From the NCBI RefSeq assembly GCF_963678975.1, contig NC_089285.1, positions 12,026,725 through 12,090,724 of the forward strand: 64,000 bases of DNA. Reading direction: 5' to 3'. The notes beneath the pieces are model-generated. The model made no database searches, had not been told where the DNA came from, and saw only the letters and a program-made list of their open reading frames with translations. Origin of the DNA: Dysidea avara. Taxonomy: Eukaryota. Of the stretch, positions 5,701-50,283 are shown in pieces. The number at the start of each line of letters is the position of its first letter. Position 1 is the first letter of the stretch. Made by a program: the position numbers and the translations under genes.

Positions 5701-7640
5701 CATAAAACATGTGCAAATTATGCGGCGTGCATTAATTAGTGGTAGCTGTTGTGTTGGAAGCATTAAGATGTTAAAGGAGGCTTTAATTTCATCGCTGGTG
5801 GTGCTTATTCTTTGTAATCCTTGTCATTCTCTATCAAAAACGGATCCTAAAGTTGATGGTAATATATGTCATTAAATAATTTTCTCTATATTCCTTTTAA
5901 TGCTCAACCGTGTTTACAGTTGTACATGGATTTTTTGATAATGAGTAATGTTTACTTTGTCAGGGCTAATTCGGAAATACTGGTTTCAGTATAAGAAGAT
6001 CACAGTAATACTTGCTTACCTGCAGGTTGTACATCGTGTTTCAGTCGGGTAGAGTCACTGTTGTATGATATTTCATGAGATACACACAACACTTCCATTG
6101 CAGTCTGACATGGCTGAAGAAGAGACTTCACAGCCTGGGATTGCACCGGCAGGGACCATTAGTTCGTTATTCAGCATTGTCGCTTGTGCAGACAGCAATT
6201 GAAGTAAGACTTAGGGAAGCTATATGTACTGATATAATGTACTACTAATACTCTTTGTTCTGTAGGTTTCTGTTTTATAGTTCTGAAGGTTTAGGTCATA
6301 GGCAAAACCTATTTTTATAGAACATCTTAGCATAGAGTTACAGTGCGGTGGATGGGCGTGCCATTAAAGCCGGTTCTTCTAGTCTATAAAAATGTGCTAC
6401 TAATATTATGTACTATTTTTATGTTTGCGTTGCACTATTATTGCAGAGAGAGTTAGAAGGCTGTAGAAATAACGTGGGATACAGGCAAATGTGGATGATC
6501 CTGAAACAAAAACATCACTTAGTAGTCAAAAGGTACTCGCTGCTAGTTACTTTGCTACTAATTTTTGCTATCTGCCTTTTTCATCACACAGGAGTACTGT
6601 TCAAATGACGATGGCTGTACTTGATTCACAAGGTGCTAAAAGACGAAGAAGGCGGCAACTCAAACGACGGCTATATCAGAACAAAGTAAGATCAACTTTG
6701 TAGTTTTGAATTTGTTTCATTAAACTACAAACAGGGCCCAGACTTTGTGTGACACTTGGATGGCTATGATAAATTGAAGCCATAAATAATTCATGGTTGT
6801 ATTGATGGGTAAGTTTTTAGTGGATGGGGCATCTGTGTTTATCCATCTTGCTGTCAGAAATATTCCACATGAACCCAATGGTTAAGTTCATATTTATTTC
6901 TGAGGTAATATAAGAAAACTGTGTCATCAATCAAAACAATAATGATGATGGTTACAGACTTCCCATAATCACTCAGTACCGGAGAACTGTCCTTGCCACC
7001 ACTATCAGTACAAAGATAGAAAACTTCTAGTCCCTTTACCCAATAATGCAGCCTACTTTACCTGAGGCAGGTCGTGGACCTAGCTAATACCCGTATGCTC
7101 ACTGCCATAGATCTTCATAATGAAAACTGCAGTGTGTATCAAATCCAAGCCAAATGCAGTGTTGCCATGGTGAGACAAGATTGGCAAAATGTCAGTAGAA
7201 CACCTCTCAGCCACTTGTACACATAATCCACCTCCCAGGGTTGTTATTACTTGTGTATTGTGTGCCATATTCCAAAGGTTTTCACGCAAAGTGATATGGC
7301 TGAAAGTGATGACAACTAACAATGATCCTAGTGTCATCTTACTTCCGTACCTGTTGTCTGTGCTACAAAATAATGGTGTGGCAGGTTATAGCTGAACAAA
7401 TCTATTACCTTTATTTCTTGAACAGGTTGTCCTAGTATTGTACGATCTGATCATGGCACTGAGAACACTACCTTGGCTGCATGTCATATGGCTTTGCGTC
7501 ATAGTCATGATGATGAGTACAGTGGAGACAAAAGCTTTCGTTTTGGACCTTCAACAACAAACACAGTTGAGTCAATAGACGATATGCGTACCGTAAGCTT
7601 CCTAATTCTCGCGTGACTTCTATGACGCAATAATAATGCC

Positions 7641-9233
7641 ATGGCAATGGTGGAAGGTGTTGAACTGTATCGTTCATGGACTGTAGACCAACTTGAGGCT
7701 TTTCTACGAGAGAGACGTGTTCCTCTGTCTGGAAACAAAGAGCAGTTAGTTAAGAAAGTCACTGATATTGTTGCAACGGATGATTTAGAAGGGCAAATCC
7801 AGGCTGTACCATTTCAACGTATTGATTATCCTTCCCCTCCTGAGTTCTCTGAGCTTTCAAATGACGTTAACTGGACAGGAGATGACTTTCCACTGGTTGC
7901 AGAAAGTAGTGTTACTACTTATCTCAAAGATAGAGATGGATATACCAAGAATTTTCGAACAGGTGTTCGTCTGTGCCAATGTGGACATTTGTTTAGCTTA
8001 GAAAAGGCCATATGCAATGATTTTACATATGTTAAGGCAAAATGTAGGCCCACAATGCGACAGGTTCCTTCTTCCTACTGCTTGTTTGTTAAGTTAAATA
8101 TGTTAAATGCCACTGGAACACCTGTTGCTGGTAACTGTAAATGTCCTGCTGGCAGCACACAAAGCTGTGTGCACATTGCTGCATTGCTTATAATGCTATC
8201 CGAGATCACTCCACAAGCTTGCACAAGTGTGAGATGTGCATGGTCCAGACCTTCTCAAGGTGGAAAGCCATCTTTTTCTGTAGATCTAGATTTTGGCAAG
8301 TCATCATCAACTGGATATTTTCCATACACTGGGACCTTGGTATCATTGGATGAACTTATTCAAGGACTGGAAGATGCTGGCTGTGATGCTGGCTGTGATG
8401 CTGGGATTTGCCATTATTTTAACCAGGAATCAGAGAAAAATCAACAAGCGTTTCCATCACCAAGCTCTAATCCAGTGTTAATAGATCCTCTTGACAAATT
8501 ATGTGAAATATGTGCAAATCGTGATGTCAATAAAAGTGATTTAGTTGAAGCTTTAAGGCCTACAGCAGAAGATGTGCAACTTATACAGAACATGAGTGTT
8601 GGTCAGAGAAACAATCCTCTATGGTTAGATGCAAGGCAATGGCGAGTCACATCAAGTAATTTTGGTAGGGTGTGCAACAGACAGTTTCGACACTCCTATC
8701 CTTTATCTTTACTTAAAACTGTTTTAGATGATTATGGAACTCCTCATTCAGCAGCATTGCAATGGGGATGTGATCACGAAAGCAGTGCTGTTCAGCAATA
8801 CATGGTTGCAACCAGTGTGCAGGTTGATGAATGTGGAGTGTTTTTAAGTGTAGACTATCCTTTTCTGGCCACATCTCCTGATGGTTTCATTTGGCTTGAG
8901 AATGAAGAATTTGGTATTGTAGAAGTAAAATGTCCATATAAGCACCGTGACAGCTCCATTGAAATGGCATGTCAGGATTCTGCATTTTGCTTAAGTGTTG
9001 ATGGTAGTCAAGCAAGATTAAAACGAACACATGATTACTACTATCAAGTTATAGGCCAGCTTGCACTATCTGGTGCTAAATTTTGTGACTTTATCGTATG
9101 GACCAAGGTAGACTTTCACAGAGAAAGGATTTTACCAGATGATGAACTGTGGAGTGAAATGAGTAGAAAACTTTCTCACTTTTATATGACTACGTTGGGT
9201 GTTGAGATTTTAGCTAAATTATATAGTATGTAG
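7641..9233 (+). CDS. SAP-like / SWIM zinc finger / YqaJ (lambda-exonuclease-like PD-(D/E)XK) nuclease-domain protein, 530 aa
   Basis: Intact 530-aa ORF. An SAP-like helix motif lies at the N-terminus ('TVDQLEAFLRERRVPLSGNKEQLVKKV'). A SWIM-type CxC...CxH motif follows ('CQCGHLF...CKCPAGSTQSCVHIAALL'). The YqaJ catalytic motifs are present ('LATSPDGF...GIVEVKCPYK'). Confidence 0.65.
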   Translation: MAMVEGVELYRSWTVDQLEAFLRERRVPLSGNKEQLVKKVTDIVATDDLEGQIQAVPFQRIDYPSPPEFSELSNDVNWTGDDFPLVAESSVTTYLKDRDGYTKNFRTGVRLCQCGHLFSLEKAICNDFTYVKAKCRPTMRQVPSSYCLFVKLNMLNATGTPVAGNCKCPAGSTQSCVHIAALLIMLSEITPQACTSVRCAWSRPSQGGKPSFSVDLDFGKSSSTGYFPYTGTLVSLDELIQGLEDAGCDAGCDAGICHYFNQESEKNQQAFPSPSSNPVLIDPLDKLCEICANRDVNKSDLVEALRPTAEDVQLIQNMSVGQRNNPLWLDARQWRVTSSNFGRVCNRQFRHSYPLSLLKTVLDDYGTPHSAALQWGCDHESSAVQQYMVATSVQVDECGVFLSVDYPFLATSPDGFIWLENEEFGIVEVKCPYKHRDSSIEMACQDSAFCLSVDGSQARLKRTHDYYYQVIGQLALSGAKFCDFIVWTKVDFHRERILPDDELWSEMSRKLSHFYMTTLGVEILAKLYSM

Positions 9234-9302
9234 TTAATTTGTGTATAATTATAACGTGATATTTCAATTTGAAATATAACCATACAAATGAATTACATGT
9301 AA

Positions 9303-10736
9303 CTACTTAATAAGTTTTTCTTTTAAATTACACAATGCACATACTACAACTATCATGTCATCAACTATTCTTTTGCTGGTACGGTTACACAATGTCTCTG
9401 TAAAAATTTTGTATTCCTTAATCCTCCTTATTGCATTTTCAACTCGTATTCGCACACTGGCAATACTCCGAGATTGTCTAGCCTCTTGAGCTGCAAGTGT
9501 GCCCCCATTCAAAAAACTGGGTATAGTCAAAAAGCATCTTTTCTGGGCAAACAAGCCTCGTGCATTATATCCTTTATCAGCCAAAATTCTTTGTCCTGGT
9601 TTTAGTTCTTCTAATAATCCACTGTGCTCACTAGTGAACCTGTCACTACTGTTTCCTGAAAATCCAGCAGAAACAAAAACAAATACACCTGTAAAGGTAT
9701 CAATAGCAACCAAGTACTTCACAGTTGTATGGCTTTTATAATCACTATAAGAAGATTTCTGTGTTGCCAGGTTGCTTGGTCGCTGAATAAAAATTTCAGT
9801 ACCATCAATTATAGCTACAGAATTTGGCAATAAATCATAAGGTGCTACAGATGGACCAACACATGTCTGTGGCCATCGTATAAGCCTTTTAAATTGAGCA
9901 TTCAGAAGAGGTATCCAATGGTTCAGAATACGTGAAATAGAACTTTGCTCAACATTGAAGCGGCATGCCAAGTCACTTTGAGTATGATTGTGCCGGAGTC
10001 GCATCAACACAAGTAAAAGCTTTTGAGTTGGTGAAAGTGTTTCACTGGCTCTTTGCTTACTTGCTACTGGCTGTAACCAACAATCAATGCAATCAAATAC
10101 CTTGCGTGATATTTCAGTGTACATATTTACTTGAGAGTCATTAAGCAAAGTCACGTTAAGTCTTTGTAAATGGGTATTAAGAAATAGAATATGTTCCTTA
10201 AGCTTTACATTCTCTAAATGTAACTCTCGATTTTCCTGGAGTAAGCGCTCCACATTGCAGTCAGCTCTCAGTGGATCTGGTATTCCTTCTTCAGAAAATT
10301 CACATGGCTGCATGTAATTTGGTGTCTGAAGGTCATTGTCAGTTTCCAGTGTGTTCTGGTGTGTGTGTTGGTCACTATCAGTCATCTCCGTGTTCTGGTG
10401 TGTGTGTTGGTCACTATCAGTAATCTCCGTGTTCTGGTGTGTGTGCTGGTCACTATCGGTCATCTCCATGTTCTGGTGTGTGTGCTGGTCACTATCAGTA
10501 ATCTCCGTGTTCTGGTGTGTGTGCTGGTCACTATCGGTCATCTCCATGTTCTGGTGTGTGTGCTGGTCACTATCAGTAATCTCCGTGTTCTGGTGTGTGT
10601 GCTGGTCACTATCAGTCATCTCTGTGTTCTGGTGTGTGTGCTGGTCACTATCAGTAATCTCTGTGTTCTGGTGTGTGTGCTGGTCACTATCGGTCATCTC
10701 CATGTTCTGGTGTGTGTGTGTGTGTGTGCTGGTCAC
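9303..10736 (-). CDS. DDE_Tnp_4 (PIF/Harbinger/ISL2EU-type) transposase catalytic region, preceded by an H/T/Q-rich 13-aa tandem repeat
   Basis: An HTH is present ('LSPTQKLLLVLMRLRHNHTQSDLACRFNVEQSSISRIL'). The DDE core blocks are present ('VAIIDGTEIFIQRP', 'YLVAIDTFTGVFVFVSAGFSGNSSD', 'ILADKGYN', 'RIRVENAIRRIKEYKIF'). Confidence 0.65.
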   Translation of the reverse strand: MTSTHTHTHQNMEMTDSDQHTHQNTEITDSDQHTHQNTEMTDSDQHTHQNTEITDSDQHTHQNMEMTDSDQHTHQNTEITDSDQHTHQNMEMTDSDQHTHQNTEITDSDQHTHQNTEMTDSDQHTHQNTLETDNDLQTPNYMQPCEFSEEGIPDPLRADCNVERLLQENRELHLENVKLKEHILFLNTHLQRLNVTLLNDSQVNMYTEISRKVFDCIDCWLQPVASKQRASETLSPTQKLLLVLMRLRHNHTQSDLACRFNVEQSSISRILNHWIPLLNAQFKRLIRWPQTCVGPSVAPYDLLPNSVAIIDGTEIFIQRPSNLATQKSSYSDYKSHTTVKYLVAIDTFTGVFVFVSAGFSGNSSDRFTSEHSGLLEELKPGQRILADKGYNARGLFAQKRCFLTIPSFLNGGTLAAQEARQSRSIASVRIRVENAIRRIKEYKIFTETLCNRTSKRIVDDMIVVVCALCNLKEKLIK

Positions 10737-10815
10737 TATCAGTCATCTCCGTGTTCTGGTGTGTGTGCAGGTCACTATCAGTCATCTCCATGTTCTGGTG
10801 TGTGTGCTGGTCACT
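10340..10815. repeat. 39-bp coding minisatellite (~12 units 'ttctggtgtgtgtgctggtcactatcagtaatctccgtg') carrying an expanded (TG)9 microsatellite at 10709-10732
   Basis: Periodic 39-bp units. One unit has (tg)9 instead of (tg)4, a +10 nt change that shifts the frame by one. Confidence 0.85.
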
Positions 10816-11427
10816 GTACGTCTCCTCACTGGGCTGTTGGCTGTGCTGACAAGGTTGCAAACTGTGCAATTCTTCATAGTGCTGCTCAGCATTAGAATGA
10901 TCAAGAACTTTACTTCTAATAGGTTTCTTTGGTAGTGGCCTTCTCTCTAACAGTCTTCTCTTCTTTGGTGCAGAAGTAGTTGCAGAATAGCTAGTTGGCT
11001 TTTTAAAATAAATTGGTAGGACATCTTGGTTAACTCTACTAGGCCCTTTAAAATCAGCATAATGCACGTTGCATATTGCAACTTCCTCTGAAGGTTGCCA
11101 CTTAGTTCTTTGCAAGCCTTGCCGGGTATGGTTGATCTTTTCAATTACAGCTCGTTTGACAAGCTCGGGCATACTGTGAATGTTGTGCAAAGTTAAATAC
11201 TCACGCCTCTGGCAGCCTTCAATTCGTGGCAGTGGGCAATCACACAGCCGATTTCCAGCAACATCTTCCGGGCACTTTCCTTTACTATTGTTGCAACCCC
11301 AAACACAACACTGGCGTTTCGACATATTCATTAAATCGCGCACTAGGAGGTTAACAAGAAATGATCTTTCAGCATGTGTTACCATTGAGATTTCATGAAA
11401 TATGCGAATTACGAATTCTCGTAACAA
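10687..11427 (-). CDS. THAP zinc-finger DNA-binding domain. This is the N-terminal part of the same transposase gene, separated from 9303-10736 by a +1 frameshift
   Basis: 'MSKRQCCVWGCNN...' is the C2 half and '...AICNVHYADF' the CH half of a THAP C2CH module. The ORF ends in the same 13-aa repeats ('QHTHQNMEMTDSD'). Its frame differs from 9303-10736 by one. Confidence 0.55.
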   Translation of the reverse strand: MLREFVIRIFHEISMVTHAERSFLVNLLVRDLMNMSKRQCCVWGCNNSKGKCPEDVAGNRLCDCPLPRIEGCQRREYLTLHNIHSMPELVKRAVIEKINHTRQGLQRTKWQPSEEVAICNVHYADFKGPSRVNQDVLPIYFKKPTSYSATTSAPKKRRLLERRPLPKKPIRSKVLDHSNAEQHYEELHSLQPCQHSQQPSEETYSDQHTHQNMEMTDSDLHTHQNTEMTDSDQHTHTHTPEHGDDR

Positions 11428-11819
11428 TTTCCTACGACTATTAGACCACGCATATCGTCTATTAATAATTGTGGCAAATTATAAATATCTGACTGTCTAT
11501 AGAATCGAAAGCTGGTGGGCTCAGTTGCGGAATTGTGTCACCGATTGGTGGATTAACATGTTTAAGGTAATTTTAATGTATATGTAACTTGTATTGAGTA
11601 ATGTTTCTCTTCTTTTGCTTGTTTCAAATAAGCATCTTCATCTTTCAAATCTTTGCTCCATTCCTTCAGTCTTTGTCTATAACCTGTTTATATACCGATT
11701 GTATAGTCACAATTCCTCCATCATTGTTGTTGGGTCTTGGTTTTTAGTCAATGTAGTAGAGAGTTTAGAATTGTGAGTTCTCTTTTTTACCAGAGCATTT
11801 CCGTAAAGCTTTCAGTTCT

Positions 11820-13696: not shown

Positions 13697-14500
13697 ATGA
13701 CCGTTTTGCTAGATTGTGAAGGTAATGCTTCAAATGCAGTTTGTGGTACTTCAAGGGAGATACCTGGTGAGATTTGTGGTCCACATTGTTTGTCATTTTA
13801 TACATGTCATGTAGATGATGAGCACAATCCAGTGTGTAATGATAGCCATGTTTCAGTGAAAAGCAATGTGATTCCTGGTAAGAGAACATTGCGTTCCCTA
13901 CTTTACGTATTTAAACACGAGTTTATTTAGATTATTGTCCAGACAACAGTAACGAGTTGGGGGATGGTGGTGGTGACTATGGAATCCAAGCTAATGAAGA
14001 AATTGACCTTGGTAGGTTCATATAATGGCTAGTTTAAATTATTCTGTATTAAAATTGTGTAGGTAATGTCTCTGATCCATGCTACAATGTATCAATGTAG
14101 AGTATTGACATGTTTGGTAAGAAGTATTTGCATATAACAGATTTTCCTATAAATTTTATTCTAGATTGTGAAGGAAATGACTGTAATTCAGCTTATGAAG
14201 ATGAAAGTGGTGGTGATGAAAATTTAATAGGGACGATATTGTTTTATTGAATGAGAGTGACATTCCTGGTGCATCCCTTGGTGGCAAAGATCCATCTGAG
14301 CTAAATATTGTCCAATTGAAGTGATGGCTAGTTTGCCGTGGGGCACCAGTGACTGGGAAAAAACCAGAATTGATTCAAAGGTATGCGCACTCATTGACAG
14401 TAACAGGTTATGATAAGACTTCCAGGGTTTGTGACTACATCAAGTATGGCTGGGATGTGCTTTTGATTGATCCTGATGATGGTGAAAATGTCTAACGTAA
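13697..14500 (+). pseudogene. Candidate 5' exons of nuclease gene 2: Cys-rich segments and an SAP-like exon interrupted by an in-frame TGA
   Basis: Cys-rich frames ('CEGNASNAVCGTSREIPGEICGPHCLSFYTCHVDDEHNPVCN', 'DCEGNDCNSAYEDESGGDE'). An SAP-like frame reads 'SELNIVQLK*WLVCRGAPVTGKKPELIQRY', then a GT donor ('caaag|gtatgc'). The '*' is a TGA. Confidence 0.3.
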
Positions 14501-14936
14501 ATTACGAGCAACAGCTTTAGTGCACAATAGTTGTGATAGTGATTCTCTGCTTCAATCTGTACCAACTACCAAAGATAAGTGTAGGACGAAGGAATTGTAC
14601 AAAGCTCCTGAAATTACGTTTGGGACTATTTTCAATTTTCTAGTTGACCATAAGGTGTTGCTTAAAAAAGCCGTTCATGTGGAGAGCATAACGGAGAAAA
14701 GAGAGAACTGTACATCTGAGAATGTTGGTGAACAGACTGGTAGCTCATCTGGAACTTCAGAACCTGTAACATATACTTGTAGTCTAGACAAAGCATATCG
14801 TTTCTTCCAGGATGGCCATGTCCAAAATGTAAGATTTCATCCAATGACAAGTCCTGTATTGGGGCAGATGTGCTTCCTTCCATGAAAAAAGGCAAAATGT
14901 ATTGTGTATGGATAGTATTATCACAGCATACTGCAC

Positions 14937-16667
14937 GTGTCAAAAAGGCATTCTGCATCTGTCCAGCTGGTCTGTCTGGTTGCTGTAACCATGTTACAGC
15001 ATGTTACAGCAACCTTGTACTGCATGGAGGAGTACTTTCGCTTGGGCCTTAATGAAGATGACGCAAAAGGTTGCACAGAAAAACGGCAAACTTGGAACAT
15101 ACCGAAAGCTTCAAAGGTGGATGCATGTCCCACTAATTTAGTTTCATTGACTAAAAAGGTTTATGGTGTCGAGAAGAGGCCTGCAGTTTACACTGTAAAT
15201 AAATGGGATTGCCGGGCAACATCAAAAAGACAGGTTGAGTCTGCTGATAGAAGATCTAAATTGAGAAAGAGACTGCTTAACATTGACCAAGCCAGAAAAG
15301 ACACTGTAACTCTTTCTGTTGCCTCAGCCACCTATAACATGCAAAGAAAGAAAGCTATTGAAGCCCAAACGATGGTTATGAGCTATGGGACTTCATGTTT
15401 TTTGCAATTATTAGACGATGATCCAGCTCCATCATCAGTGACAGACAACAGAATGCTGCTGACAAGAGACGAGCGTCTTGCAAGAGTTGAAGCACAGAAA
15501 TTAAAATTCCAGAAAGATATGTCCACATTACTTAAGCAGGCTAACTGTGACCACAGTTACAGTGCCAGTTCTATTTCACCAGAACACCACAAAGTTGAGA
15601 ATAAACCCCCGCCACTACATGTTGTTAGGAACTTCTATGAAGAACATGTTTGCATTAGCCCAACTGAAGCCATTGAGATTGAAGCTATGACACGTAAACA
15701 ATCGTTCTCAGATCTCTGGCATCAAGAGCGTACATTTAGGATCTCTGCTTCGATAATGAAGACTGTTTGTCACAGAAAGCGTGATACTGATATAAAGTTT
15801 TTTCTCACTGGTAAGTTGTGTCCAAAGGCTATCAACAGTGCAGCTATCAACTATGGAAATATCAACGAAGATACTGCTATTAGAAGCTATATTGATTATC
15901 AAGAGAAGAGGGGTCTACAATTAACTGTTCACAAATGTGGCTTGCACATCAATCCTTCAGTACCCTGGCTAGCTGCCACCCCAGATTCCATAGTTGAAAT
16001 TGGACAGGACATGGGATACTTGGAAGTCAAATGCCCTTACGTATGTAAAACAAAACCAATAGCTGAGGCTGCATTGCAGCAATTTTCATTTTGCCTACAA
16101 AGCAACAATGGGATGTTACAGCTGAAGAAAAAACATCAGTACTTCTTTCAAGTGCAGACACAACTTTTTGTCACTCAGCTTCCATGGTGCAATTTTGTTT
16201 TATGGGCCCCAAATGATGCTGTTTATGTAGAAAGAATTTTTTGCGATGATTCTTTTATCGAAGATGCAGTTTCTAAGGCTAGAGCTTTTTATTTTGACAA
16301 ATTTTTGCCTTCACTTTTGCCATATGTAATAATTTCTGACAGCTGTGAAGACCGATTTGCAGTTATCACAACAGAGGTTGTCCAGATTTGTGACAGTGCT
16401 GAGGTTTCTGACGATGTTAAGATAGTTAACAATTCCGAGGCTTGTGATGATGTTGAAGTTAAGATTGTTGAGGCTAGTGATGATGTTGAAATTTTAAGCG
16501 TTTCTATTGTACCCAGCCTAACTCACATACGAATGTATTGCAGCAGCAACATTGCAGAAAGCATGAAGTTAGTGGTGATGGCAATTGCTTATATTATGCC
16601 GTTGCTCATCAGGCTGGATATATTGGACATTCTTCTCGTGGGGACATCTTTATTGGAAAGCAACTGA
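14937..16667 (+). CDS. SWIM zinc finger + YqaJ (lambda-exonuclease-like) nuclease, paralog of 7641-9233. The main exon probably ends at 16499 and splices to the OTU exon
   Basis: The SWIM motif ('CICPAGLSGCCNHVTACY') starts ~17 nt upstream of this M-initiated ORF (14920-14973), within the overlapping 14870-15052 ORF in the same frame. The YqaJ motifs are present ('LAATPDSIVEIGQDMGYLEVKCPYVCK'). Paralogous blocks to gene 1 are present ('LWHQERTFRISASI' against 'LWLDARQWRVTSSN'). Confidence 0.6.
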   Translation: MSKRHSASVQLVCLVAVTMLQHVTATLYCMEEYFRLGLNEDDAKGCTEKRQTWNIPKASKVDACPTNLVSLTKKVYGVEKRPAVYTVNKWDCRATSKRQVESADRRSKLRKRLLNIDQARKDTVTLSVASATYNMQRKKAIEAQTMVMSYGTSCFLQLLDDDPAPSSVTDNRMLLTRDERLARVEAQKLKFQKDMSTLLKQANCDHSYSASSISPEHHKVENKPPPLHVVRNFYEEHVCISPTEAIEIEAMTRKQSFSDLWHQERTFRISASIMKTVCHRKRDTDIKFFLTGKLCPKAINSAAINYGNINEDTAIRSYIDYQEKRGLQLTVHKCGLHINPSVPWLAATPDSIVEIGQDMGYLEVKCPYVCKTKPIAEAALQQFSFCLQSNNGMLQLKKKHQYFFQVQTQLFVTQLPWCNFVLWAPNDAVYVERIFCDDSFIEDAVSKARAFYFDKFLPSLLPYVIISDSCEDRFAVITTEVVQICDSAEVSDDVKIVNNSEACDDVEVKIVEASDDVEILSVSIVPSLTHIRMYCSSNIAESMKLVVMAIAYIMPLLIRLDILDILLVGTSLLESN

Positions 16668-16909
16668 GAATGTTGGCATTGACGACTATGCAGAAGTATC
16701 CTGGTGTACGCATAGAACATGGACTATCACAGCATCAGTGGGAACAAAAGAAATCCTGCATCTTACAGCCTAGTGATTGGGGTGGTGATTTAAAAGTACA
16801 CCTACTTGCCATTGCAATTGGTAGAGAGACAGTTGGATCACTGGAAATGGGAACGAGTTTACATGTGCACGAAGATTTTTATGCCACTCTCCGCCAGTTC
16901 CAAAGATGA
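16544..16909 (+). CDS. OTU-family cysteine-protease domain exon, probably the 3' exon of the SWIM-YqaJ gene via a 44-nt GT..AG intron (16500-16543)
   Basis: Cys motif 'SGDGNCLYYAVAHQ', 'SDWGGDLKVHLLAIAIGRETVGSL' and C-terminal 'LHVHEDFY' are OTU-like. The intron 'gtttctattgt...gtattgcag' has GT/AG ends, and its length (44 ≡ 2 mod 3) restores the reading frame from the upstream ORF. Confidence 0.5.
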   Translation, partial: QQHCRKHEVSGDGNCLYYAVAHQAGYIGHSSRGDIFIGKQLRMLALTTMQKYPGVRIEHGLSQHQWEQKKSCILQPSDWGGDLKVHLLAIAIGRETVGSLEMGTSLHVHEDFYATLRQFQR

Positions 16910-17074
16910 GAGGTGGAATTTTTATTCCTGTTAACATTACAGAATTAATCAGCCAGTAGAAACAATACGAACCATCACCACTACTCATAATATATAATGG
17001 TGTGAATCATTATGATTCTACAACTTTTTGTAAATAGTTTTTTTCAGTTTAATCAATACAAGTATTATACATAT

Positions 17075-18640
17075 TTAGCATACCAAAGGGGGTTCAAAGT
17101 TACTAAGCATGCAGCAAACATATATAATATTACTTATGGAGTCCCACATGGATCCTGGAAGTGTACCCTGTAAAAGCTTGTACTCTTTGACACGGCCAAT
17201 CGCTCGTTCGACATGAACTCTTAAACGAGCAATTTTCTTTGTTATAAAAACATCAGTAGCATCCATCTGTCTACTCTTGAAGAAATGGTGGAATGTTTAG
17301 GCATACACCATGAGGAATCAATAAATCTTGAATCGTGAAGCCTTTGTCGGCCATGATTTCATCCCCAGGTTCCAATTTGTTTAACAACCCACTGACTTGC
17401 ACCAACTTTTGATCCAAAATAGACCCTTCATATGCCTCGGACACAAATGAAATGGCTCTACTTGGGGTTATTCCAATTAATACTTTACGGTATTTTTATT
17501 CTTGTATGCTGAGAAGGTACAGGATTGGGCTAATAGAGACGAAGGTCTCTCAACTGAAAATTCTGTAGCATCAATGATGATCCGAGTGTTGGGATACTCT
17601 TTCTTAAATGGCTCTGGCATATACTTTTTCACAATGTGCCATGGTGGAAACCTTTCCACTGATTTAAAATTGTGATACATTAAATATACCCAGGTGTTAT
17701 ACCAAATCTACTACTCGTGAAACAATTTATCCAGGTGTTATACCAAATCTACTACTTCGAACGCTACTTGTGAAACAGTAGATTGTGATATACCAAATCT
17801 ATTGGCAATGTCAAGCTCCGGAAACCCCGTTCGAAGCCTAACAAAGGTCAAAAACAATTGCTCCTTCAGTGGAAGCTTGCATGGTGGTCCAGCCTTTACA
17901 TCACTATAATCACACTCGCTTCGTTTTCCACTCCACTGCCACATAAGTAAGGCATCTTCCTCTAACATTTCTTCATAGAATGCTATTAGTGTTTCATAAC
18001 TTGAAAATCCTGTGTAAAACTTCAATAAGTGTTTATCATGTCTAACATTTTCCAATCTAAATAAACTTCTGTTAAGTTTACTTTCTGCTTCTGCCAGCTG
18101 GATTTTCAATTGATCGACCTCGTTTTGTAGGCTTTGAACAGATTTTTTTTCATACTGTTGTTCAGCAATCAGTCCATCTTCTAACTCTGGAACATCTACA
18201 TTTTCTGTTATGCCAGGGGTGTTAGGAAAGGGCATCGTTTCAGTTACTGGGTTTCTGCATGGACAAGTACTTGGCTTTGAAGGGTCATCTGATAGAGTCT
18301 GCAAAGCATTTTGGGATGTCAATGACATTCAATTTTTGGTTTTTGTCCATGGAAAATGGGAAGGGGCTGCTGTTGGTTTAAGGAGCCAGCTTTTACCTCC
18401 TAAAAGCAAGTAATAATCACTTGAAGCAAAATGTTCAGAACAAATTTTGGTGTTTTTGTTTACTGTGAAATCATCACCAATATCACGACGAATTAATTTA
18501 ATCCATTTCTTCCCCTTTGCTGACTTTATATCAGGAAAGCCATGGAAGGAAACCTTTGGCAAATTCAATTCATGCCATGCCACATTTCTGCCAGAAGAGT
18601 TATGACAATCTGGAACACAGCAGTCTATTCAGTTGTAACT
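17075..18640 (-). pseudogene. THAP + DDE_Tnp_4 transposase, second and decayed copy (multiple frameshifts, no ATG at the THAP start)
   Basis: THAP: 'CCVPDCHNSSGRNVAWHELNLPKVSFHGFP...TKICSEHF'. HTH: 'LKEQLFLTFVRLRTGFPELDIANRFGISQSTVSQ'. DDE blocks 'RIIIDATEFSVERP', 'GDEIMADKGF' and 'RVHVERAIGRVKEYKLLQ' lie in different frames. Confidence 0.6.
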
Positions 18641-19959
18641 GTTTATCAGTGTTAATTGCTAGGCTAAGACTAAAGAGAAAGAAAAGTAAGTGCTGTTATA
18701 AAAGTATATAAAGCCTGTAGTACGTGTTATCACGCTGATAACTGTCTTACCTGTAGATTCAATGAGCTTTATCTTTCCTTTAGCTCATAAAGTTTCTTTT
18801 CATTGGTAGCTAACCCTAGCTACACTGTTTTCCAGAGTTCGCTGAAGCACAATTTTATCCAGTCATGTGTTGGCTTGGGCCCATGCGTTAACAGCATCAG
18901 CTCGCTTTAGTCCACCATTTATAATTGGACAGAGAATAAGTAGCAGTCGAGGTTTACTACTAGAGCCTTATCACTACATTCGGATTTCTTGCCAACTGAA
19001 GTGATCGACATTTTAAAAAACGTACATGCGATTCTACCCCCTCCCCCTAGCGTACCATTTATACGCTCGCGAAAAAGCAGAAAATTGTTGACCACCCCTT
19101 ACATGGTTTGATATTGGGTTTCCCAGAAATGGGTACTTCTGCTCTATTTCTCGTGTTACCCTATCAAAATCAGTTTTTTATGGGTAGTGTTTGTATAATG
19201 CCATGACACTGGCTATTCTGGTGTGGAACTTGGTGGTTGACAGACCATCCATTATGCCTTTTATATGCACAAGTGACTTGTATCTAATCAGTTTTTACCG
19301 TGTTTTGATGGTTACATCAATGTTCATCACATACATAATTGGAAAGGAGAATGGTGTTGGAATGTCTTTATCTTCAGCTGAAAATAGCACAATTGTAGGC
19401 TTCTCATCTGATGCTTTTTCAGTGTGGGAGACTACTGGTACCTCCTGAATGTGTTTCACATTACAAACTTATTGGTATAATAAATGTCAAGACCACTCCA
19501 TGAATCATTATTTACATCCTACAAGAGTTGAAAATGGTGGGCTTTTATGTGCAATATCCCATTTTGAGTTCACTGTCATTCTGCTCAGTTGCGTTTGTTG
19601 GTGGTGGTGGTTTGCACTATCACTGGTTACTGACTGCACGGTACTAGTTCTATTAAGCTGCGTACAAAAAGATAGAATATATAACATGCATAAAAATAGT
19701 TTTAAAATTTTGCACTTCATTAATTAATTGCCTGAGGCATTTCTTGTCCCCAAGTGCAACTAAACCGAGCTGCTCCAAATCTTCATAATTCAGAAGTAGA
19801 AGTACTCTTTGCCTTCATCAGAAGGTCTCAATAGCCTGCACGTATGGGTAGCTAAACATTAGGTATACAGCCACACCTCTTCATCAAAGCCATTCTCTTC
19901 CAAGAGCACACATTGGTCATTAATTTTGTCCACTTCTTTGCAGTGTATGTATAAATTGC

Positions 19960-35809: not shown

Positions 35810-38575
35810 TAATTTGCAGCTGATCCCTCTACTGGGTGACTTGAAATGTAGCTGAACTCTCTACAGGGTGATCTGCTTGTACGTAGATGAACTCTTTACA
35901 AGATTCTCTCTACAGGGTGACTTGACTCTAGCTGAACTCTCTGCATGGTTATCTGTTTGTAGTTGAATTCTCTACAGGGTGATTTGTTTGCAGCTGAATT
36001 CTCTACATGGTGGTTGCTTTGTAGCTGAACTCTCTAAAAGGTGACTTCTTCTAGCTGAACTCTCTACAGGGTGATTTTTTCATAGCTGAACTCTCTACAG
36101 GGTGATTTTTTTGTAGCTGAAATCCCTACAAGGTAACTTCTTCTAGCTGATCTTTCTACAGGGAGATTTGTTTGTAGCTGAGTTCTCTACAGGGTGTTTG
36201 TTTGCAGCTGAACTCTCTACATGGGAGTTTCATTGTAGCTAAATTCTCTACAATGTGACTTCTTCTAGCTGAATTCTCTACAGGGTGACTTGTTTGTAGC
36301 TGAAATCCCTACAAGGTAACTTCTTCTAGCTGATCTTTCTACAGGGAGATTTGTTTGTAGCTGAGTTCTCTACAGGGTGTTTGTTTGCAGCTGAACTCTC
36401 TACATGGTAGTTTCTTTGTAGCTGAACTCTCTACAATGTGACTTCTTCTAGCTGAACTCTCTACAGGGTGACTTGTTTCTAGCTGATCTCTCTACAGGGT
36501 GACTTGTTTCTAGCTGAACTCTCTACAGGATGATTTGTTTGCAGCTGAACTCTCTACATGATGATTTCTTTGTAGCTGAACTCTCTACAGGGTGATTTGT
36601 TTGTAGCTGAAATCCCTACAAGGTAACTTCTTCTAGCAGATCTTTCTACAGGGAGATTTGTTTGTAGCTGAGTTCTCTACAGGCTGATTTGTTTGCAGCT
36701 GAACTCTCTACATGGTAGTTTCTTTGTAGCTGAACTCTCTACAATGTGACTTCTTCTAGCTGAACTTTCTACAGGGTGACTTGTTTCTAGCTGATCTCTC
36801 TACAAGGTGACTTGTTTCTAGCTGAACTCTCTACAGGGGATTTGTTTGCAGCTGAACTCTCTACATGGAGGTTTCTTTATAGCTGAACTCTCTACAAGGT
36901 GACTTCTTCTAGCTGATCTCTCTACAGGGTGATTTGTTTGTAGCTGAACTCTCTACAGGTGATTTGTTTGTAGCTGAACTCTCTACAAGGTGATACTTCT
37001 AGCTGATCTCTCTACAGGATGACTTGTTTCTAACTGAACTCTCAACAGGGTGATCTGTTCATAGCTGAACTTTCTACTGGGTGATTTGTTTGCAGCTGAA
37101 CTCTCTACATGGTGGTTTCTTTGTAGCTGAACTCTCTACAAGGTAACTTCTTCTAGCTGATCTTTTTACAGGACATATCTGTTTGTAGCTGAGTTCTCTA
37201 CAGGGTGATTTGTTTGCAGCTGAACTGTCTACATGGGAGTTTCATTGTAGCTAAACTCTCTACAATGTGACTTCTTCTAGCTGAATTCTCTACAGGGTGA
37301 CTTGTTTCTAGCTGATCTCTCTACAGGGTGACTTGTTTCTAGCTGAACTCTATACAGGCGATTTGTTTGCAGCTGAACTCTCTACAGGGTGATTTATTTG
37401 CAGCTGAACTCTCTACAAGGTGACTTCTTCTAGCTGAACTCTCTACAGAGTGATTGATTTTTTTGCAGCTGAACTCTCTACATGGTGGTTGCTTTGTAGC
37501 TGAACTCTCTAAAAGGTGACTTCTTCTAGCTGAACTCTCTACAGGATGATTTGTTTGCAGCTGAACTCTCTACATGGTGCTTTCTTTGTAGCTGAACTCT
37601 CTACAGGGTGATTTGTTTGTAGCTGAAATCCCTACAAGGTAACTTCTTCTAGCTGATCTTTCTACAGGGCGATTTGTTTGTAGCTGAGTTCTCTACAGGG
37701 TGTTTGTTTGCAGCTGAACTCTCTACATGGTAGTTTCTTTGTAGTTGAACTCTCTACAATGTGACTTCTTCTAGCTGAACTCTCTACAGGGTGACTTGTT
37801 TCTAGCTAATCTCTCTACAGGGTGACTTGTTTCTAGCTGAACTCTCTACAGGTGATTTGTTTGCAACTGAACTCTCTACATGTTGGTTTCTTTGTAGTTG
37901 AACTCTCTACAAGGCAACTTCTTCTAGCTGATCTTTCTACAGGGTGATTTGTTTGTAGCTGAATTCTCTACAGGGTCAGCTAAACTCTCTACAAGATGAC
38001 TTCTTCTAGCTGAACTGTCTACAGGGTGATTTGTTTGTAGCTGAACTCTCTACAGGGTGATCTGTTCGTAGCTGAACTCCCTACAAGGTAACTTCTTCTA
38101 GCTAATCTTTTTACAGGGCGATTTGTTTGTAGCTGAGTTCTCTACAGGGTGATTTGTTTGCAGCTGAACTCTCTACATGGTAGTTTCTTTGTAGCTGAAC
38201 TCTCAACAATGTGACTTCTTCTAGCTGAACTCTCTACAGGGTGACTTGTTTCTAGCTGATCTCTCTACAGGGTGACTTGTTTCTAGCTGAACTCTCTACA
38301 GGGGATTTGTTTGCAGCTGAATTCTCTACATGGTTGTTTCTTTATAGCTGAACTGTCTACAAGGTGACTTCTTCTAGCTGATCTCTCTACAGGGTGATTT
38401 GTTTGTAGCTGAACTCTCTACATGATGGTTTCTTTGTAGCTGAACTCTCTACAAGGTGACTTCTTCTAGCTGATACAGGGTGACTTGTTTCTAGATGAAC
38501 TCTCTACAGGGTAACTTGCATGTAGCTGAATTGTCTATCAGAGTAACTGTTTGTAGCTGAATTCCGTACAGAATA
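35810..38575 (+). repeat. Satellite array; 30/31-bp monomers forming a ~61-bp higher-order unit ('ctgaactctctacagggtgatttgtttgtag' + 'ctgaactctctacaaggtgacttcttctag'), ~45 dimers
   Basis: Direct reading. Uninterrupted for 2.7 kb. Confidence 0.95.
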
Positions 38576-39699: not shown

Positions 39700-40440
39700 A
39701 ATCATCCAAAAGTGGATGATTATTGCTCATATCTCTATATAGTGAGAGATTTATGCAACAATCATCCAAATTTGGATGTTTCTTGCCATCCAATATTGGA
39801 ATACATTTGTCGCTATCCAAATTTGGATGTTTCTTGCCATCCAATAATGGAATACATTTGTCGCCATCCAAATTTGGATGTTTCTAGCCATCCAATATTG
39901 GAATACATTTCTGGTCATCCAAATTTGGATGTTTCTTGCCATCCAATATTGGAATACATTTCTGGTCATCCGAATTTGGATGTTTCTTGCCATCCAATAT
40001 TGGAATACATTTGTTGCCATCCAAATTTGGATGTTTCTTGCCATCCAATATTGGAATACATTCCTTGCCATCCAAATTTGGATGTTTCTTGCCATCCAAT
40101 AATGGAATACATTCCTTGCCATCCAAATTTGGATGTTTCTTGCCATCCAATATTGGAATACATTTGTTGCCATCCAAATTTGGATGTTTCTTGCCATCCA
40201 ATATTGGAATACATTCCTTGCCATCCAAATTTGGATGTTTCTTGCCATCCAATAATGGAATACATTCCTTGCCATCCAAATTTGGATGTTTCTTGCCATC
40301 CAATATTGGAATACATTTGTTGCCATCCAAATTTGGATGTTTCTTGCCATCAAATATTGGAATACATTTCTTGCCATCCATTTTCGGATGTTTCTTGCCA
40401 TCCAATATTGGAATACATTTGTTGCCATTCACATTAAAAG
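39700..40440 (+). repeat. Left TIR array: ~60-bp tandem units 'catccaaatttggatgtttcttgccatccaatattggaatacatt..'
   Basis: ~12 units. The ORFs in all six frames here are repeat artefacts. Confidence 0.9.
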
Positions 40441-43381: not shown

Positions 43382-44138
43382 CTAATGATTCCTGCGTCCT
43401 TTCCTAAGTGCAATGGGAGTGCTTTCTTCACCATCAAGCGGGTCGTATCCCTTCCTTTTTTTTCTAATGGGTGCTTTAGTGCTAGCATCCTCCACTTGTG
43501 TTGTGGGTGCCCGGTCAATATCAACAGGAGGAATATTTCTATCTTTAGGATCTTCTGGCTCCTGTTGAATATATGTTTCGACATCCAAGCCATAATGTGC
43601 ATAACACTTTGTGATAATGATTTTCAGAGCAGTGCTCCAATTCCCTAAAATGAGTCGATTAGTTAAGGCTTTTATAACATACATAGAGCTTACCTTCATA
43701 ATCTGGAGGTGGATTAGTAACACTTTGAAATGGAATGTCATCAGGCCACCATGTAGGCTTAGGAGAACTCCAAGTTATGCCAGTATCCTTCAATATTCCT
43801 CTAATAATTGATTTCATTGTCAACCCGTTGAGGTAACATAGTTTATCTGGCAAAGGTGCAAGAAGTATGGAGGGATTGGTGATTTCTATTTCTTCTTCCA
43901 TCCAATCACTGCTTAATAAGATCTCTTCTTTGTGAGCTTCAATTACCCTGGTAATCCTTTTGTCTCCAAAGACATTGAGGCTGTTAGTTTTCATTGAAGA
44001 GTAGGCAAATCCAATTGCAACTCCAAGCTGGCCAAGCTCTTGACACTTCTTTGATATCACATCAAGCTTTCTCTTCACATCCCTTGCATCATTGTTTATC
44101 TTCCTATTTGCTGCCATCACTTCACTCACTAACTCCAA
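43382..44138 (-). CDS. Second ORF inside the large TIR element; unknown function. Two overlapping frames (43659-44138 and 43382-43741) suggest one intron or one frameshift
   Basis: 159-aa and 119-aa ORFs. A K/R-rich tail ('KAPIRKKRKGYD'). No recognisable domain. Confidence 0.35.
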
Positions 44139-48664: not shown

Positions 48665-49260
48665 TCTATATTGGATGGCAAGAACCATCTAATTTTGGAA
48701 AGCAAAACTTACATTCCAATAATGGATAGTAAGAAACATCCATTTTTGGAAAGCAAAACTTATATTTCAATATTGGATGGCAAAAACCATGCGATTTTGG
48801 AAGGCGGAAGTTACATTCCAATATTGGATTGCAAGAAACATCCAATTTTGGACGACAGAAATTACATTCCAATATTGGATGGCAAGAAACATCCAATTTT
48901 GGAAGGCAGAAATTACATTCCAATATAGGATGGCAAGAAACATCCAATTTTGGACGACAGAAATTACATTCCAATATAGGATGGCAAGAAACATCCGATT
49001 TTGGACGACAGAAATTGCATTCCAATATTGGATGGCAAGAAACATCCAATTTTGGAAGGCAGAAGTTACATTCCAATATTGGATGGCAAGAAACATCCAA
49101 TTTTGGACGACAGAAATTACATTCCAATATTGGATGGCAAGAAACATCCGATTTTGGAAGGCAAAGTTTACATTCCAATATTGGATGGTTAGAAACATCC
49201 GATTTTGGAAGGCTAAGTTTACATTCCAATATTGGATGGTTAGAAACATCCGATTTTGGA
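48665..49260 (-). repeat. Right TIR array: the same ~60-bp unit in inverse orientation ('ggatggcaagaaacatccaattttgga...attccaatatt')
   Basis: Reverse complement of the 39700-40440 units. Confidence 0.9.
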
Positions 49261-49524: not shown

Positions 49525-50283
49525 ACAAGGTTATCCTTCTAGCTGATCTCTCTACCGGATGACTTGTTTGTAGCTGAACTCTCTACAGAGTGGTTTGTTT
49601 GTAGCTGAATTTTCTACAGGGCAATTTGTTTGCAGCTGAACTCTCTACATGGTAGTTTCTTTGTAGCTGAACTATCTACAATGTAACTTCTTCTAACTGA
49701 ATTCTCTACAGGGTGACTTGTTTCTAGCTGATCTCTCTACAGGGTGACTTGTTTCTAGCTGAACTCTCTACAGGGTGATTTGTTTGTAGCTGAACTCTCT
49801 ACAAGGTAACTTCTTCTAGCTGATCTTTCTACAGGGTGATTTGTTTGTAGCTGAATTCTCTACAGGGTGACTTGTTTGTAGCTGATCTCTGTACAGGGTG
49901 ACTTGTTCCTAGCTGAACTCTCTACAGGTGATTTGTTTGCAGCTGAACTCTCTTACATGGTGGTTTCTTTGTAGCTGAACTCTCTACAAGGTGACTTCTT
50001 CTAGCTGATCTCTCTACAAGATGACTTGTTTCTAACTGAACTCTCTACAGTGTGATCTGTTCATAGCGGAACTTTCTACTGGGTGATTTGTTTGCAGCTG
50101 AACTCTTTGCATGACTGTTTCTTTGTAACTGAACTCTCTACAAGGTAACTTCTTCTAGCTGATCTCTCTACAGGGCAATTTGTTTGAGCTTAACTCTCTA
50201 CATGATGGTTTCTTTGTAGCTGAACTCTCTATTAGGTACTTTCTTCTGGCTGATCTGACTACAGGGTGACTTGTTTATAGCTG
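49525..50283 (+). repeat. 30/61-bp satellite array (same family as 35810-38575)
   Basis: Direct reading. Confidence 0.95.

Follow-up and report, generated by a model that had tools for sequence, protein, structure and literature searches.

ISL2EU transposons, eukaryotic DNA elements of the PIF/Harbinger-ISL2EU-Spy (PHIS) superfamily, carry two ORFs, one encoding a transposase with THAP, HTH and DDE domains and the other a YqaJ protein, and their insertion duplicates the dinucleotide AT within the target A|AT|T (PMC4482050, PMC4122938, PMC9179366). Their terminal inverted repeats (TIRs) extend over 6-259 bp and usually start with GG (PMC4482050, PMC4122938, PMC9179366). PMC4482050, which reports no PHIS elements in sponges, describes the second ORF as being of unknown role. 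In the 64,000-nucleotide stretch of DNA analysed here (the window, whose positions are used throughout) we find two YqaJ genes, gene 1 and gene 2, and both are the second ORF, or accessory gene, of ISL2EU-group cut-and-paste DNA transposons. A convergent transposase lies opposite each of them, with nuclease gene and transposase in the same order in both copies, and the association with transposons proposed in an earlier note on this DNA is borne out in that both genes are transposon genes. The 576-aa ORF of gene 2 is 100% identical to the Dysidea avara RefSeq protein XP_065892315.1. We consider it very probable that the window holds two ISL2EU-group (PHIS) transposons, that the second of these is dead, that the YqaJ and OTU frames of its accessory gene were separated by the loss of a base, and that the GT...AG segment found there is a coincidence.

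Copy 1 (7577-11460) is a complete ISL2EU element of ~3.9 kb, delimited by its TIRs, by its target-site duplication (TSD) and by its borders against two other loci. The TIRs are perfect over 13 bp (AGACGATATGCGT, at 7577-7589 and 11448-11460) and have AG as their first bases, the TSD is AT (7575-7576 and 11461-11462) flanked by A and T, corresponding to an A|AT|T target, and homology to the two other loci (98% and 85%) ends at 7574/11463. The element is young, and a copy that is 98% identical to it is present elsewhere. Gene 1 (7641-9233, + strand) is intact and, as judged by Pfam and a structure model, encodes a 530-aa SAP/SWIM-like/YqaJ protein without an OTU domain. The possibility of an OTU remnant 3' of gene 1 was rejected because only 69 bp separate the stop of the gene (9233) from the end of the transposase ORF (9303); in addition the OTU exon that the earlier note proposed to seek in relatives of gene 1 was present in 0/73 of them. 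The transposase of copy 1 (9303-11427, - strand) is split into two ORFs, one with HTH_Tnp_4 and DDE_Tnp_4 domains (9303-10736) and one, N-terminal and rich in Cys, at 10687-11427; the frame changes between them over a 39-nt tandem repeat, through which the transposase of a related locus, L007, is open in one frame. Pfam returned no THAP match in the N-terminal ORF of copy 1, and the THAP-like character of this transposase N-terminus is unconfirmed.

Copy 2 spans about 14139-18624 and possibly extends to 18882 on the right. Its accessory gene begins upstream of 14937, where the 576-aa ORF (14937-16667, + strand) starts, with the remnant of a SAP-domain exon (14259-14380, + strand; its conceptual translation matches Pfam SAP with E=1.6e-7) that contains an in-frame TGA at 14322-14324. 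The 45 nt that follow (14381-14425, + strand; GTATGC...TTCCAG) are likely to be a genuine short intron that separates the SAP exon from the main exon; at the homologous place the RefSeq model of P0004, an intact paralog from the same species, splices 'PELIQR|VCDYIKYGW', and a 51-nt GT-AG intron is found on L006. Alignment to the related locus L001 defines the remnant of the main exon (14426-17037, + strand), with a SWIM-like CxCx7CxH signature, the YqaJ nuclease, an acidic linker and the OTU domain. Over 14139-17029 gene 2 and the intact L001 ORF share 75% nucleotide identity, and the tblastn pieces of gene 2 are split over three frames. Deletions have removed 13 nt at ~14854 and single bases at ~16522 and ~16836, ten bp are duplicated in tandem (14990-15009), and besides the TGA in the SAP exon there is a TAG stop at 16957-16959. 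With at least six disabling lesions, gene 2 of the window is a pseudogene and cannot make the fusion protein. XP_065892315.1 (558 aa), which starts at an ATG inside the duplicated 10-mer and shares its stop with the 576-aa ORF, is an ORF left over from a dead transposon.

The convergent transposase remnant of copy 2 (17075-18622, - strand) has a THAP-HTH-DDE_Tnp_4 organization, recognized through its homology to the L001 transposase (62% amino acid identity) and through Pfam (THAP E=4.7e-15, with a match to HTH_Tnp_4). About ten in-frame stops and several garbled stretches interrupt it and, on top of the lesions in gene 2, these show that copy 2 is dead. A candidate right terminus (18862-18884, - strand), consisting of AT and GGGCCCAAGCCAACACATGAC, resembles the terminus of L005. 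Inverted-repeat scans, local alignment to the termini of L003, L005 and copy 1, and a pattern search allowing three mismatches found no left terminus or TSD, and the status of copy 2 as a complete insertion rests on its relatives. L001 also displays no TIR, and that locus probably stops short of the ends of its element. Pfam gave zero matches for two further ORFs of the window, of 767 aa at 44619 and of 243 aa at 50518.

Compared with the described ISL2EU elements, both window copies and the related loci L001, L003, L005 and L006 display the same pair of convergent ORFs, the THAP domain being confirmed for copy 2 and the relatives. Element size is 3.9 to about 5.5 kb and the TIR lengths fall inside the published range of 6-259 bp; at high identity the TIR of L003 extends over ~170 bp and starts with AAG, and that of L005 over ~145 bp and starts with GGG. 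An AT TSD within A|AT|T is found at copy 1, L007 and L008, whose insertion sites all read A-AT[TE]AT-T. At L003 and L005 AT is present on both sides of the TIRs, and the outer flanks are not A...T (C...T for L003 and T...A for L005). Three features set the present elements apart: the TIR of copy 1 starts with AG and not with the usual GG, the accessory protein of the gene 2 family has an additional C-terminal OTU domain, and the elements are those of a sponge, an animal group for which we found no ISL2EU element in the searchable literature. The transposases were assigned to the class from their Pfam domains (DDE_Tnp_4 and HTH_Tnp_4) and from gene order only.

Lambda exonuclease, LHK-Exo and YqaJ belong to the PD-(D/E)XK alkaline exonucleases, which act 5'-3' in phage recombination systems. 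The Pfam YqaJ family (PF09588) is matched significantly by both gene 1 (E=4e-18) and gene 2 (E=1e-10), and the PD-(D/E)XK signature that the earlier note had recognized in the two ORFs was located at SPDG (8874-8885) and EVKCP (8922-8936) in gene 1 and at TPDS (15978-15989) and EVKCP (16023-16037) in gene 2 (active-site motif 15978-16037, + strand), the D and E-x-K of both genes aligning to the nuclease motif of LHK-Exo (3syy). These catalytic residues do not vary among 30 relatives of gene 1 or among 26 relatives of gene 2, and a downstream Q-x-x-x-Q/Y is likewise conserved. The structure prediction that the note had recommended recovered the expected fold: the model of gene 1 (pLDDT 81) has LHK-Exo as its best match (TMt 0.75) and matches lambda exonuclease too, with Foldseek E-values of 2e-9 (3syy) and 1e-7 (lambda exonuclease), and results for P0001, an intact member of the gene 2 family, are similar (TMt 0.68-0.75 to 3syy and 0.57-0.69 to lambda exonuclease for the predicted folds). 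Both genes are thus predicted to encode lambda-exonuclease-like nucleases in which the catalytic D, E and K are present. Unlike the phage exonucleases, the ISL2EU nuclease is embedded in a eukaryotic multidomain protein of 530-1000 aa, alongside SAP, a zinc finger and, in one of the families, OTU, and unlike the phage recombination systems the element encodes no Red-beta/RecT-type annealing partner. The SWIM-like CxCxnCxH signature is invariant or nearly so (C166, C168, C176 and H178 in gene 1); Pfam SWIM scores 17.8 bits on P0001 against a threshold of 19.6 and gives no match to the window sequences.

The nuclease domains of genes 1 and 2 are about 33% identical, and the two genes are members of two different ISL2EU families; to call them paralogs, as had been done, is loose. 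The dN/dS value for the YqaJ part (0.14, window copy versus L001) and the invariant columns show purifying selection on the nuclease at the level of the family, and to that extent the functional constraint previously proposed is upheld. It does not apply to this locus, as gene 2 of the window is a dead copy, a pseudogene whose retained motif therefore reflects recent decay and not constraint on the locus.

The fusion of YqaJ to OTU is real in the transposon family to which gene 2 belongs. Five proteins (P0001, P0004, P0015, P0016 and P0212) contain the SAP, SWIM-like, YqaJ and OTU regions in one ORF, with a disordered linker of roughly 70 residues between YqaJ and OTU, and in five loci from sponge or sponge-metagenome assemblies (L001, L002, L003, L005 and L006, with P0212, a cluster mate of P0004, used at locus level in its place) the SAP..YqaJ..OTU ORF of 838-982 aa is followed by a convergent THAP-HTH-DDE_Tnp_4 ORF of 502-545 aa, which in L002 ends at 114 aa with the contig. 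The SWIM-YqaJ-OTU architecture suggested by the earlier note is accordingly correct for the family, and incorrect for the pseudogene of the window. The similarity to OTU proteases that it reported is also genuine. The catalytic-Cys motif GDGNC (16574-16588, + strand) is invariant in the family and the NHYD of the catalytic-His motif, NHYDS at 17005-17019 (+ strand), nearly so; NHYDS, however, lies in a frame different from that of GDGNC and 3' of the TAG, the domain being broken between the two motifs by the 1-nt deletion near 16836 and the stop at 16957-16959. The stitched window sequence reaches 22.8 bits with Pfam OTU (PF02338), below the cut-off of 23.3, compared with 27.9 for intact P0001. 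The end of the coding region at 16909 assumed in the note is an artefact, since homology to OTU continues in another frame to about 17037.

In its GDGNC and NHYD motifs, its fold and the Pfam score of P0001 above threshold, the domain resembles OTU deubiquitinases such as nairovirus vOTU, OTUD3, OTUD5/DUBA and yeast Otu1; the P0001 model folds like lambda exonuclease/LHK-Exo in one part and like nairovirus vOTU/OTUD3 in another (TMt 0.63-0.78 for the latter). The OTU domain of the gene 2 family differs from known OTU carriers in being fused to a nuclease and not to a polymerase/helicase polyprotein. Other transposons, such as Helentrons, also carry OTU domains. Conservation of the OTU frame in related copies, the absence of which would have spoken against the earlier note, was evident in the invariant GDGNC and a dN/dS of 0.19, and the domain is under purifying selection in the family. 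To gauge how widely the fusion is spread, 1.84 billion representatives were searched with an OTU profile; this retrieved mostly short fragments, and beyond E~1e-12 generic protist OTUs were among the matches.

It was proposed in the earlier note that gene 2 is functional, its YqaJ exon being spliced to an OTU exon through a 44-nt GT-AG intron (16500-16543). The description of the segment is accurate: the codon AGC ends at 16499, a GT...AG segment of 44 nt follows, and its removal joins the 576-aa ORF in phase to 'QQHCRKHEVSGDGNCLYYAVAHQ...'. Short introns, moreover, are normal in this gene family, with four or five genuine ones of 45-53 nt in the 5' part of the gene in the same species, and the size of 44 nt is therefore no argument against an intron. 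It should be stressed, however, that 81 stop-free, in-phase GT...AG pairs of at least 30 nt, the 44-nt pair among them, could join the two frames equally well, and the occurrence of this pair is not above chance. The candidate donor (GTTTC, in GTTTCT) is unlike those of the real introns of the gene, which read GTAAT, GTAAG or GTATG, and in the RefSeq model of P0004, where introns are confined to the 5' part, residues 157-1002 from SWIM into OTU derive from a single exon. The counterparts of the segment itself are coding in the intact ORFs of L001, L003, L004, L005 and L006 ('...LSISTALNPSPHLNILQQL...'). Against L001 and L004 coding DNA 16500-16543 (+ strand) is collinear base for base save for one 1-nt gap near 16522, and the peptide obtained when the base is restored, 'LSVSIVPSLxSHTNVLQQQHCRKH', aligns without gaps to 'LGASTIYGQTSHIDVLQKLNCRRH' of P0001, a stretch in which HIDVLQ forms helix 704-709 of the model. 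Splicing would cost the protein some 15 residues, among them the conserved 'VL' of 'VLxxL' at the start of the OTU domain, and would yield a product that still stops at 16909, short of the catalytic His, and that lacks SAP and SWIM because of the upstream frameshifts. The RefSeq model ends unspliced at 16667, and the exact spliced product from the RefSeq start codon is absent from a collection of 15 billion proteins. A functional, spliced gene 2 is thus very improbable. The alignments indicate instead that the segment is decayed coding sequence of the OTU start with a one-base deletion, the loss of a base near 16522 having put the YqaJ and OTU parts of copy 2 out of frame with each other, and that it should not be annotated as an intron. 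A programmed frameshift joining YqaJ to OTU was also ruled out, because the intact relatives use a single frame.

It could be argued that the breaks in frame are errors of assembly or sequencing in an intact, active element copy, as single-base indels are common in long reads and this might in principle account for the gaps near 16522 and 16836. Errors of that type would not explain the 10-bp tandem duplication, the 13-nt deletion and the stops that arose by substitution (TGA 14322 and TAG 16957), nor the approximately ten in-frame stops and garbled stretches of the transposase, and the same truncated 576-aa ORF is present both in an ENA assembly contig and in the RefSeq chromosome, two assemblies that may not be independent; we regard this explanation as extremely improbable. 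The genes might alternatively have been domesticated by the host from a transposon, or be pieces of a virus that had integrated. A YqaJ 'viral recombinase' and a viral-type OTU are hallmarks of viruses, the best fold matches include nairovirus OTUs and, for YqaJ, herpesvirus alkaline nucleases, and several members of the family are annotated by NCBI as D. avara proteins. The genes, however, belong to units bounded by TIRs and flanked by AT, every one of which has a transposase of its own; copies with 85-98% identity are present at many unrelated loci, no other viral genes are adjacent and gene 2 of the window is disabled, which makes a host or viral origin very unlikely also. The reading that we prefer remains that of two ISL2EU-group transposons, of which copy 2 is dead.

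The ISL2EU class of element was already known and the copy containing gene 2 is non-functional. The searchable literature, including papers that mention ISL2EU, yielded no YqaJ-OTU fusion in these elements. For the second ORF the conserved pairing of nuclease and OTU supplies concrete activities to test. In a possible mechanism the transposase would excise the element and insert it at A|AT|T sites, and the SAP domain and zinc finger would bring the accessory protein to DNA. The nuclease could then resect 5' ends at the break, in the manner of lambda Exo in Red recombination, such that the donor gap would be repaired from a homologous copy. The OTU domain might act at the break on a protein of the host or of the element, stripping it of ubiquitin or a ubiquitin-like modifier; alternatively, it might cut the linker and so release the nuclease. 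We tentatively suggest, while judging it rather unlikely, that this ISL2EU lineage, to date encountered in Dysidea avara and sponge-derived assemblies only, edits ubiquitin signalling at its own break while resecting it, and may in this way steer the host towards homology-directed repair by which the donor copy is restored.

This study documents ISL2EU elements in a sponge, with one family that is young and a second whose YqaJ accessory protein has acquired an OTU domain, which purifying selection maintains. If the proposed mechanism is true, the latter family would encode a nuclease-DUB module through which a transposon hijacks repair, and this would provide the first functional clue to the second ORF of ISL2EU.

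The fusion of a YqaJ nuclease with an OTU protease, which the earlier note proposed for gene 2 by way of a 44-nt intron, is real for the family to which gene 2 belongs, but the intron is not supported. When the conceptually repaired gene 2 protein was used as query, 48 relatives were found, 26 of which combine the Pfam domains YqaJ and OTU in a single protein. Five relatives' loci (L001 and L002, encoding P0001; L003, P0015; L005, P0016; L006, P0212, a cluster mate of RefSeq XP_065901931.1), several of them from 'sponge metagenome' samples, share a common unit, in which a single ORF of 838-982 aa encodes (SAP)-YqaJ-OTU and is followed by a convergent THAP-HTH-DDE_Tnp_4 ORF of 502-545 aa (114 aa in L002, where it is cut by the contig end). 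Because these loci encode the domains as one ORF, the SAP/SWIM-like/YqaJ/OTU fusion is genuine in this family. Terminal inverted repeats of high identity, flanked by AT, bound L003 (73-5189; ~170 bp) and L005 (4386-9917; ~145 bp), and share a subterminal 'AATGACG' box. The gene 1 family, at 33% identity to that of gene 2 in the nuclease domain, has members of ~520-540 aa; OTU was looked for in 73 relatives and is carried by none, and in the window only 69 bp separate the gene 1 stop from the end of the transposase ORF.

The sequence facts behind the proposed intron are sound as far as stated: the 576-aa ORF (14937..16667, +; YqaJ by Pfam, E=1e-10) has a codon AGC ending at 16499, the 44 bases that follow (16500-16543) begin with GT and end with AG, and their removal brings the ORF in phase with the frame reading QQHCRKHEVSGDGNCLYYAVAHQ... 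The size is normal for gene 2, since real GT-AG introns of this accessory gene family are 45-53 nt long, yet nothing else supports the intron. These introns lie in the 5' part only (14381-14425; L006 5418-5963), and the 45-nt intron at 14381-14425 has a length divisible by three and no stop codon, so that translation through it gives 'YAHSLTVTGYDKTS'. In the RefSeq model of P0004, an intact D. avara paralog, on L006, the four GT-AG introns (47, 46, 53 and 51 nt) are all 5', and residues 157-1002 occupy a single exon. They start with GTAAT, GTAAG, GTAAG and GTATG, and the homologous intron in the window with GTATG, unlike the candidate, which starts with GTTTC. The segment homologous to 16500-16543 is read straight through in 5/5 intact relatives (in L004, the closest relative of gene 2 at 73% amino-acid identity, as 'VEVLSISTALNPSPHLNILQQLSYQKHDVHGDGNC'). 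Copy 2, the element containing gene 2, is 75% identical in nucleotides to L001 across 14139-17029 and 17075-18624, and the L001 coding sequence is collinear with 16500-16543 apart from a single base that the window lacks near 16522; a six-way alignment shows the same loss relative to both L004 and L001. Restoring one base yields 'LSVSIVPSLxSHTNVLQQQHCRKHEVSGDGNC', equal in length to 'LGASTIYGQTSHIDVLQKLNCRRHNIIGDGNC' of P0001, in whose AlphaFold model HIDVLQ (residues 704-709) forms the OTU-opening helix; the CAG of the candidate 'acceptor' is the codon of the conserved Gln in VLQ. There are 81 stop-free in-phase GT...AG pairs able to join the two frames, the RefSeq model at the locus ends unspliced at 16667, and the protein collection has no exact match to the spliced product as translated from the start codon of that model. 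Coding homology, the GTTTC donor, the 81 equivalent pairs and the uninterrupted P0004 exon argue strongly against the intron and for a missing base.

That base, lost near 16522, is one of several lesions in copy 2 relative to L001. The SAP exon contains a TGA (14322-14324), 13 nt have been deleted near 14854, and a tandem duplication of 10 bp (CATGTTACAG x2, 14990-15009) cuts off the SWIM-like finger from the remainder of gene 2; a further single nucleotide is missing near 16836, and TGG has become TAG at 16957-16959. As a result, the two OTU motifs, Cys (16574-16588) and His (NHYDS, 17005-17019), lie in different frames. XP_065892315.1 of Dysidea avara ('uncharacterized protein isoform X1', 558 aa) is 100% identical to the 576-aa ORF, and as annotated it is an artefact of decay, because its start ATG falls within the frameshifting duplication. 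The transposase remnant (17075..18622, -; THAP E=4.7e-15, with HTH_Tnp_4 and DDE remnants) contains ~10 in-frame stops and garbled stretches. The right terminus is a candidate only (18862-18884) and a left terminus was sought but not found. Copy 2 is dead.

The nuclease residues are kept in both YqaJ genes, as had been claimed. The motifs lie at 8874-8885 and 8922-8936 in gene 1 (7641..9233, +; 530 aa; Pfam YqaJ E=4e-18, SAP E=3e-7) and at 15978-15989 and 16023-16037 in gene 2; HMMER aligns 'AATPDSIVEIGQDMGYLEVKCPY' to 'GASPDGLV---GDTGLIEIKCPN' of LHK-Exo (3syy, a solved alkaline exonuclease), and D, E and K do not vary across 26 relatives of gene 2 or across 30 of gene 1, at identities down to 25%. 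Among gene 2 relatives GDGNC is likewise constant, and NHYD almost so. Comparison of the window copy with L001 gives dN/dS values of 0.14 (YqaJ) and 0.19 (OTU), which argue that most of the divergence arose while the elements were active and both domains were under selection. Functional constraint on the nuclease thus holds for the family, but not for the copy 2 locus. At fold level, the best matches of the gene 1 model (pLDDT 81) are LHK-Exo (E=2e-9, TMt 0.75) and lambda exonuclease. The P0001 model, whose YqaJ and OTU domains have pLDDT 70-96 for the most part and whose linker (631-703) is below 35, also matches lambda exonuclease/LHK-Exo; matches to its C-terminal domain are nairovirus OTUs, OTUD3 (TMt 0.78), OTUD5 and yeast Otu1.

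The window is sponge nuclear DNA (GC ~38%), and 3' of each + strand YqaJ gene lies a convergent gene on the - strand. ISL2EU elements (PHIS superfamily) pair a THAP/HTH/DDE transposase ORF with one for a YqaJ-exonuclease protein, duplicate AT within A|AT|T, have terminal inverted repeats of 6-259 bp and average ~4.8 kb (PMC4482050, PMC4122938, PMC9179366); the gene pairs here correspond to that definition. Copy 1, whose transposase gene (9303..11427, -) encodes HTH_Tnp_4 and DDE_Tnp_4 (E=7e-37), matches in detail. Its ends are perfect 13-bp inverted repeats, AGACGATATGCGT, at 7577-7589 and 11448-11460, unique within the window and far shorter than those of L003 and L005; AT flanks each side, with an A before the left AT and a T after the right one. 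Homology to two further insertions of its family, L007 (98% identity) and L008 (85%), both at unrelated loci, ends exactly at 7574/11463, and their sites are likewise of the form A-AT[TE]AT-T. Given these ends, flanks and matching borders, copy 1 is a young ISL2EU element of 3.9 kb. Its stitched flanks (7440-7573 and 11500-11587; 'DHGTEN...RIESWW') match rva_4 of Pfam with E=4.6e-5, short of the curated cut-off, which suggests that it sits inside integrase-core-like sequence as a nested transposon. Within its transposase, a 39-nt tandem repeat (11.7 copies, 10351-10815; 13-aa unit HTHQNTEMTDSDQ) separates a Cys-rich N-terminus from the HTH-DDE part; the ORFs on either side of this repeat fall in different frames in copy 1, whereas L007 is in one frame throughout.

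Elsewhere in the window an intact Cys/His-rich ORF of 767 aa (44619-46922, +), with no Pfam match even at E<=1, could be another transposase-like gene; an adjoining 159-aa ORF (43659-44138, -) has a weak Nrf1_DNA-bind match (E=2e-4). The 767-aa ORF is bracketed by two arrays of a 51-nt repeat (39763-40435 and 48668-49260) in opposite orientation, ~8 kb apart, which are open in several frames and so give rise to long repetitive 'ORFs'. A 31-nt satellite (consensus CTCTCTACAGGGTGATTTGTTTGTAGCTGAA) forms large arrays of ~20-85 copies each at 35906-38561, 49540-50295 and 62324-63608.

The function of the second ISL2EU ORF is stated to be unknown (PMC4482050). The transposase would cut and paste the element at A|AT|T. 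By analogy with lambda Exo, 5'-3' resection is the most likely activity of the accessory protein, which would be targeted via its SAP domain and zinc finger and would act either where excision breaks the DNA or at the ends of the element; such resection would promote refilling of the donor site by homology-directed repair. The putative role of the OTU domain would be to deubiquitinate, at the break, a protein of the host or of the element, or to cleave the disordered linker.

The ISL2EU class, including its YqaJ ORF, is already known; PHIS elements have been reported absent from sponges (PMC4482050). In the literature searched, no paper was found that links ISL2EU with OTU, and the sole one that brings together YqaJ, OTU and a transposon concerns brown-alga giant-virus insertions. 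All named members of the fusion family come from Dysidea avara, and a profile search with the OTU part returned mostly unnamed fragments. Repbase may already list the variant, but we rate the YqaJ-OTU fusion, represented here by a decayed copy, as a new domain architecture within a known transposon group.
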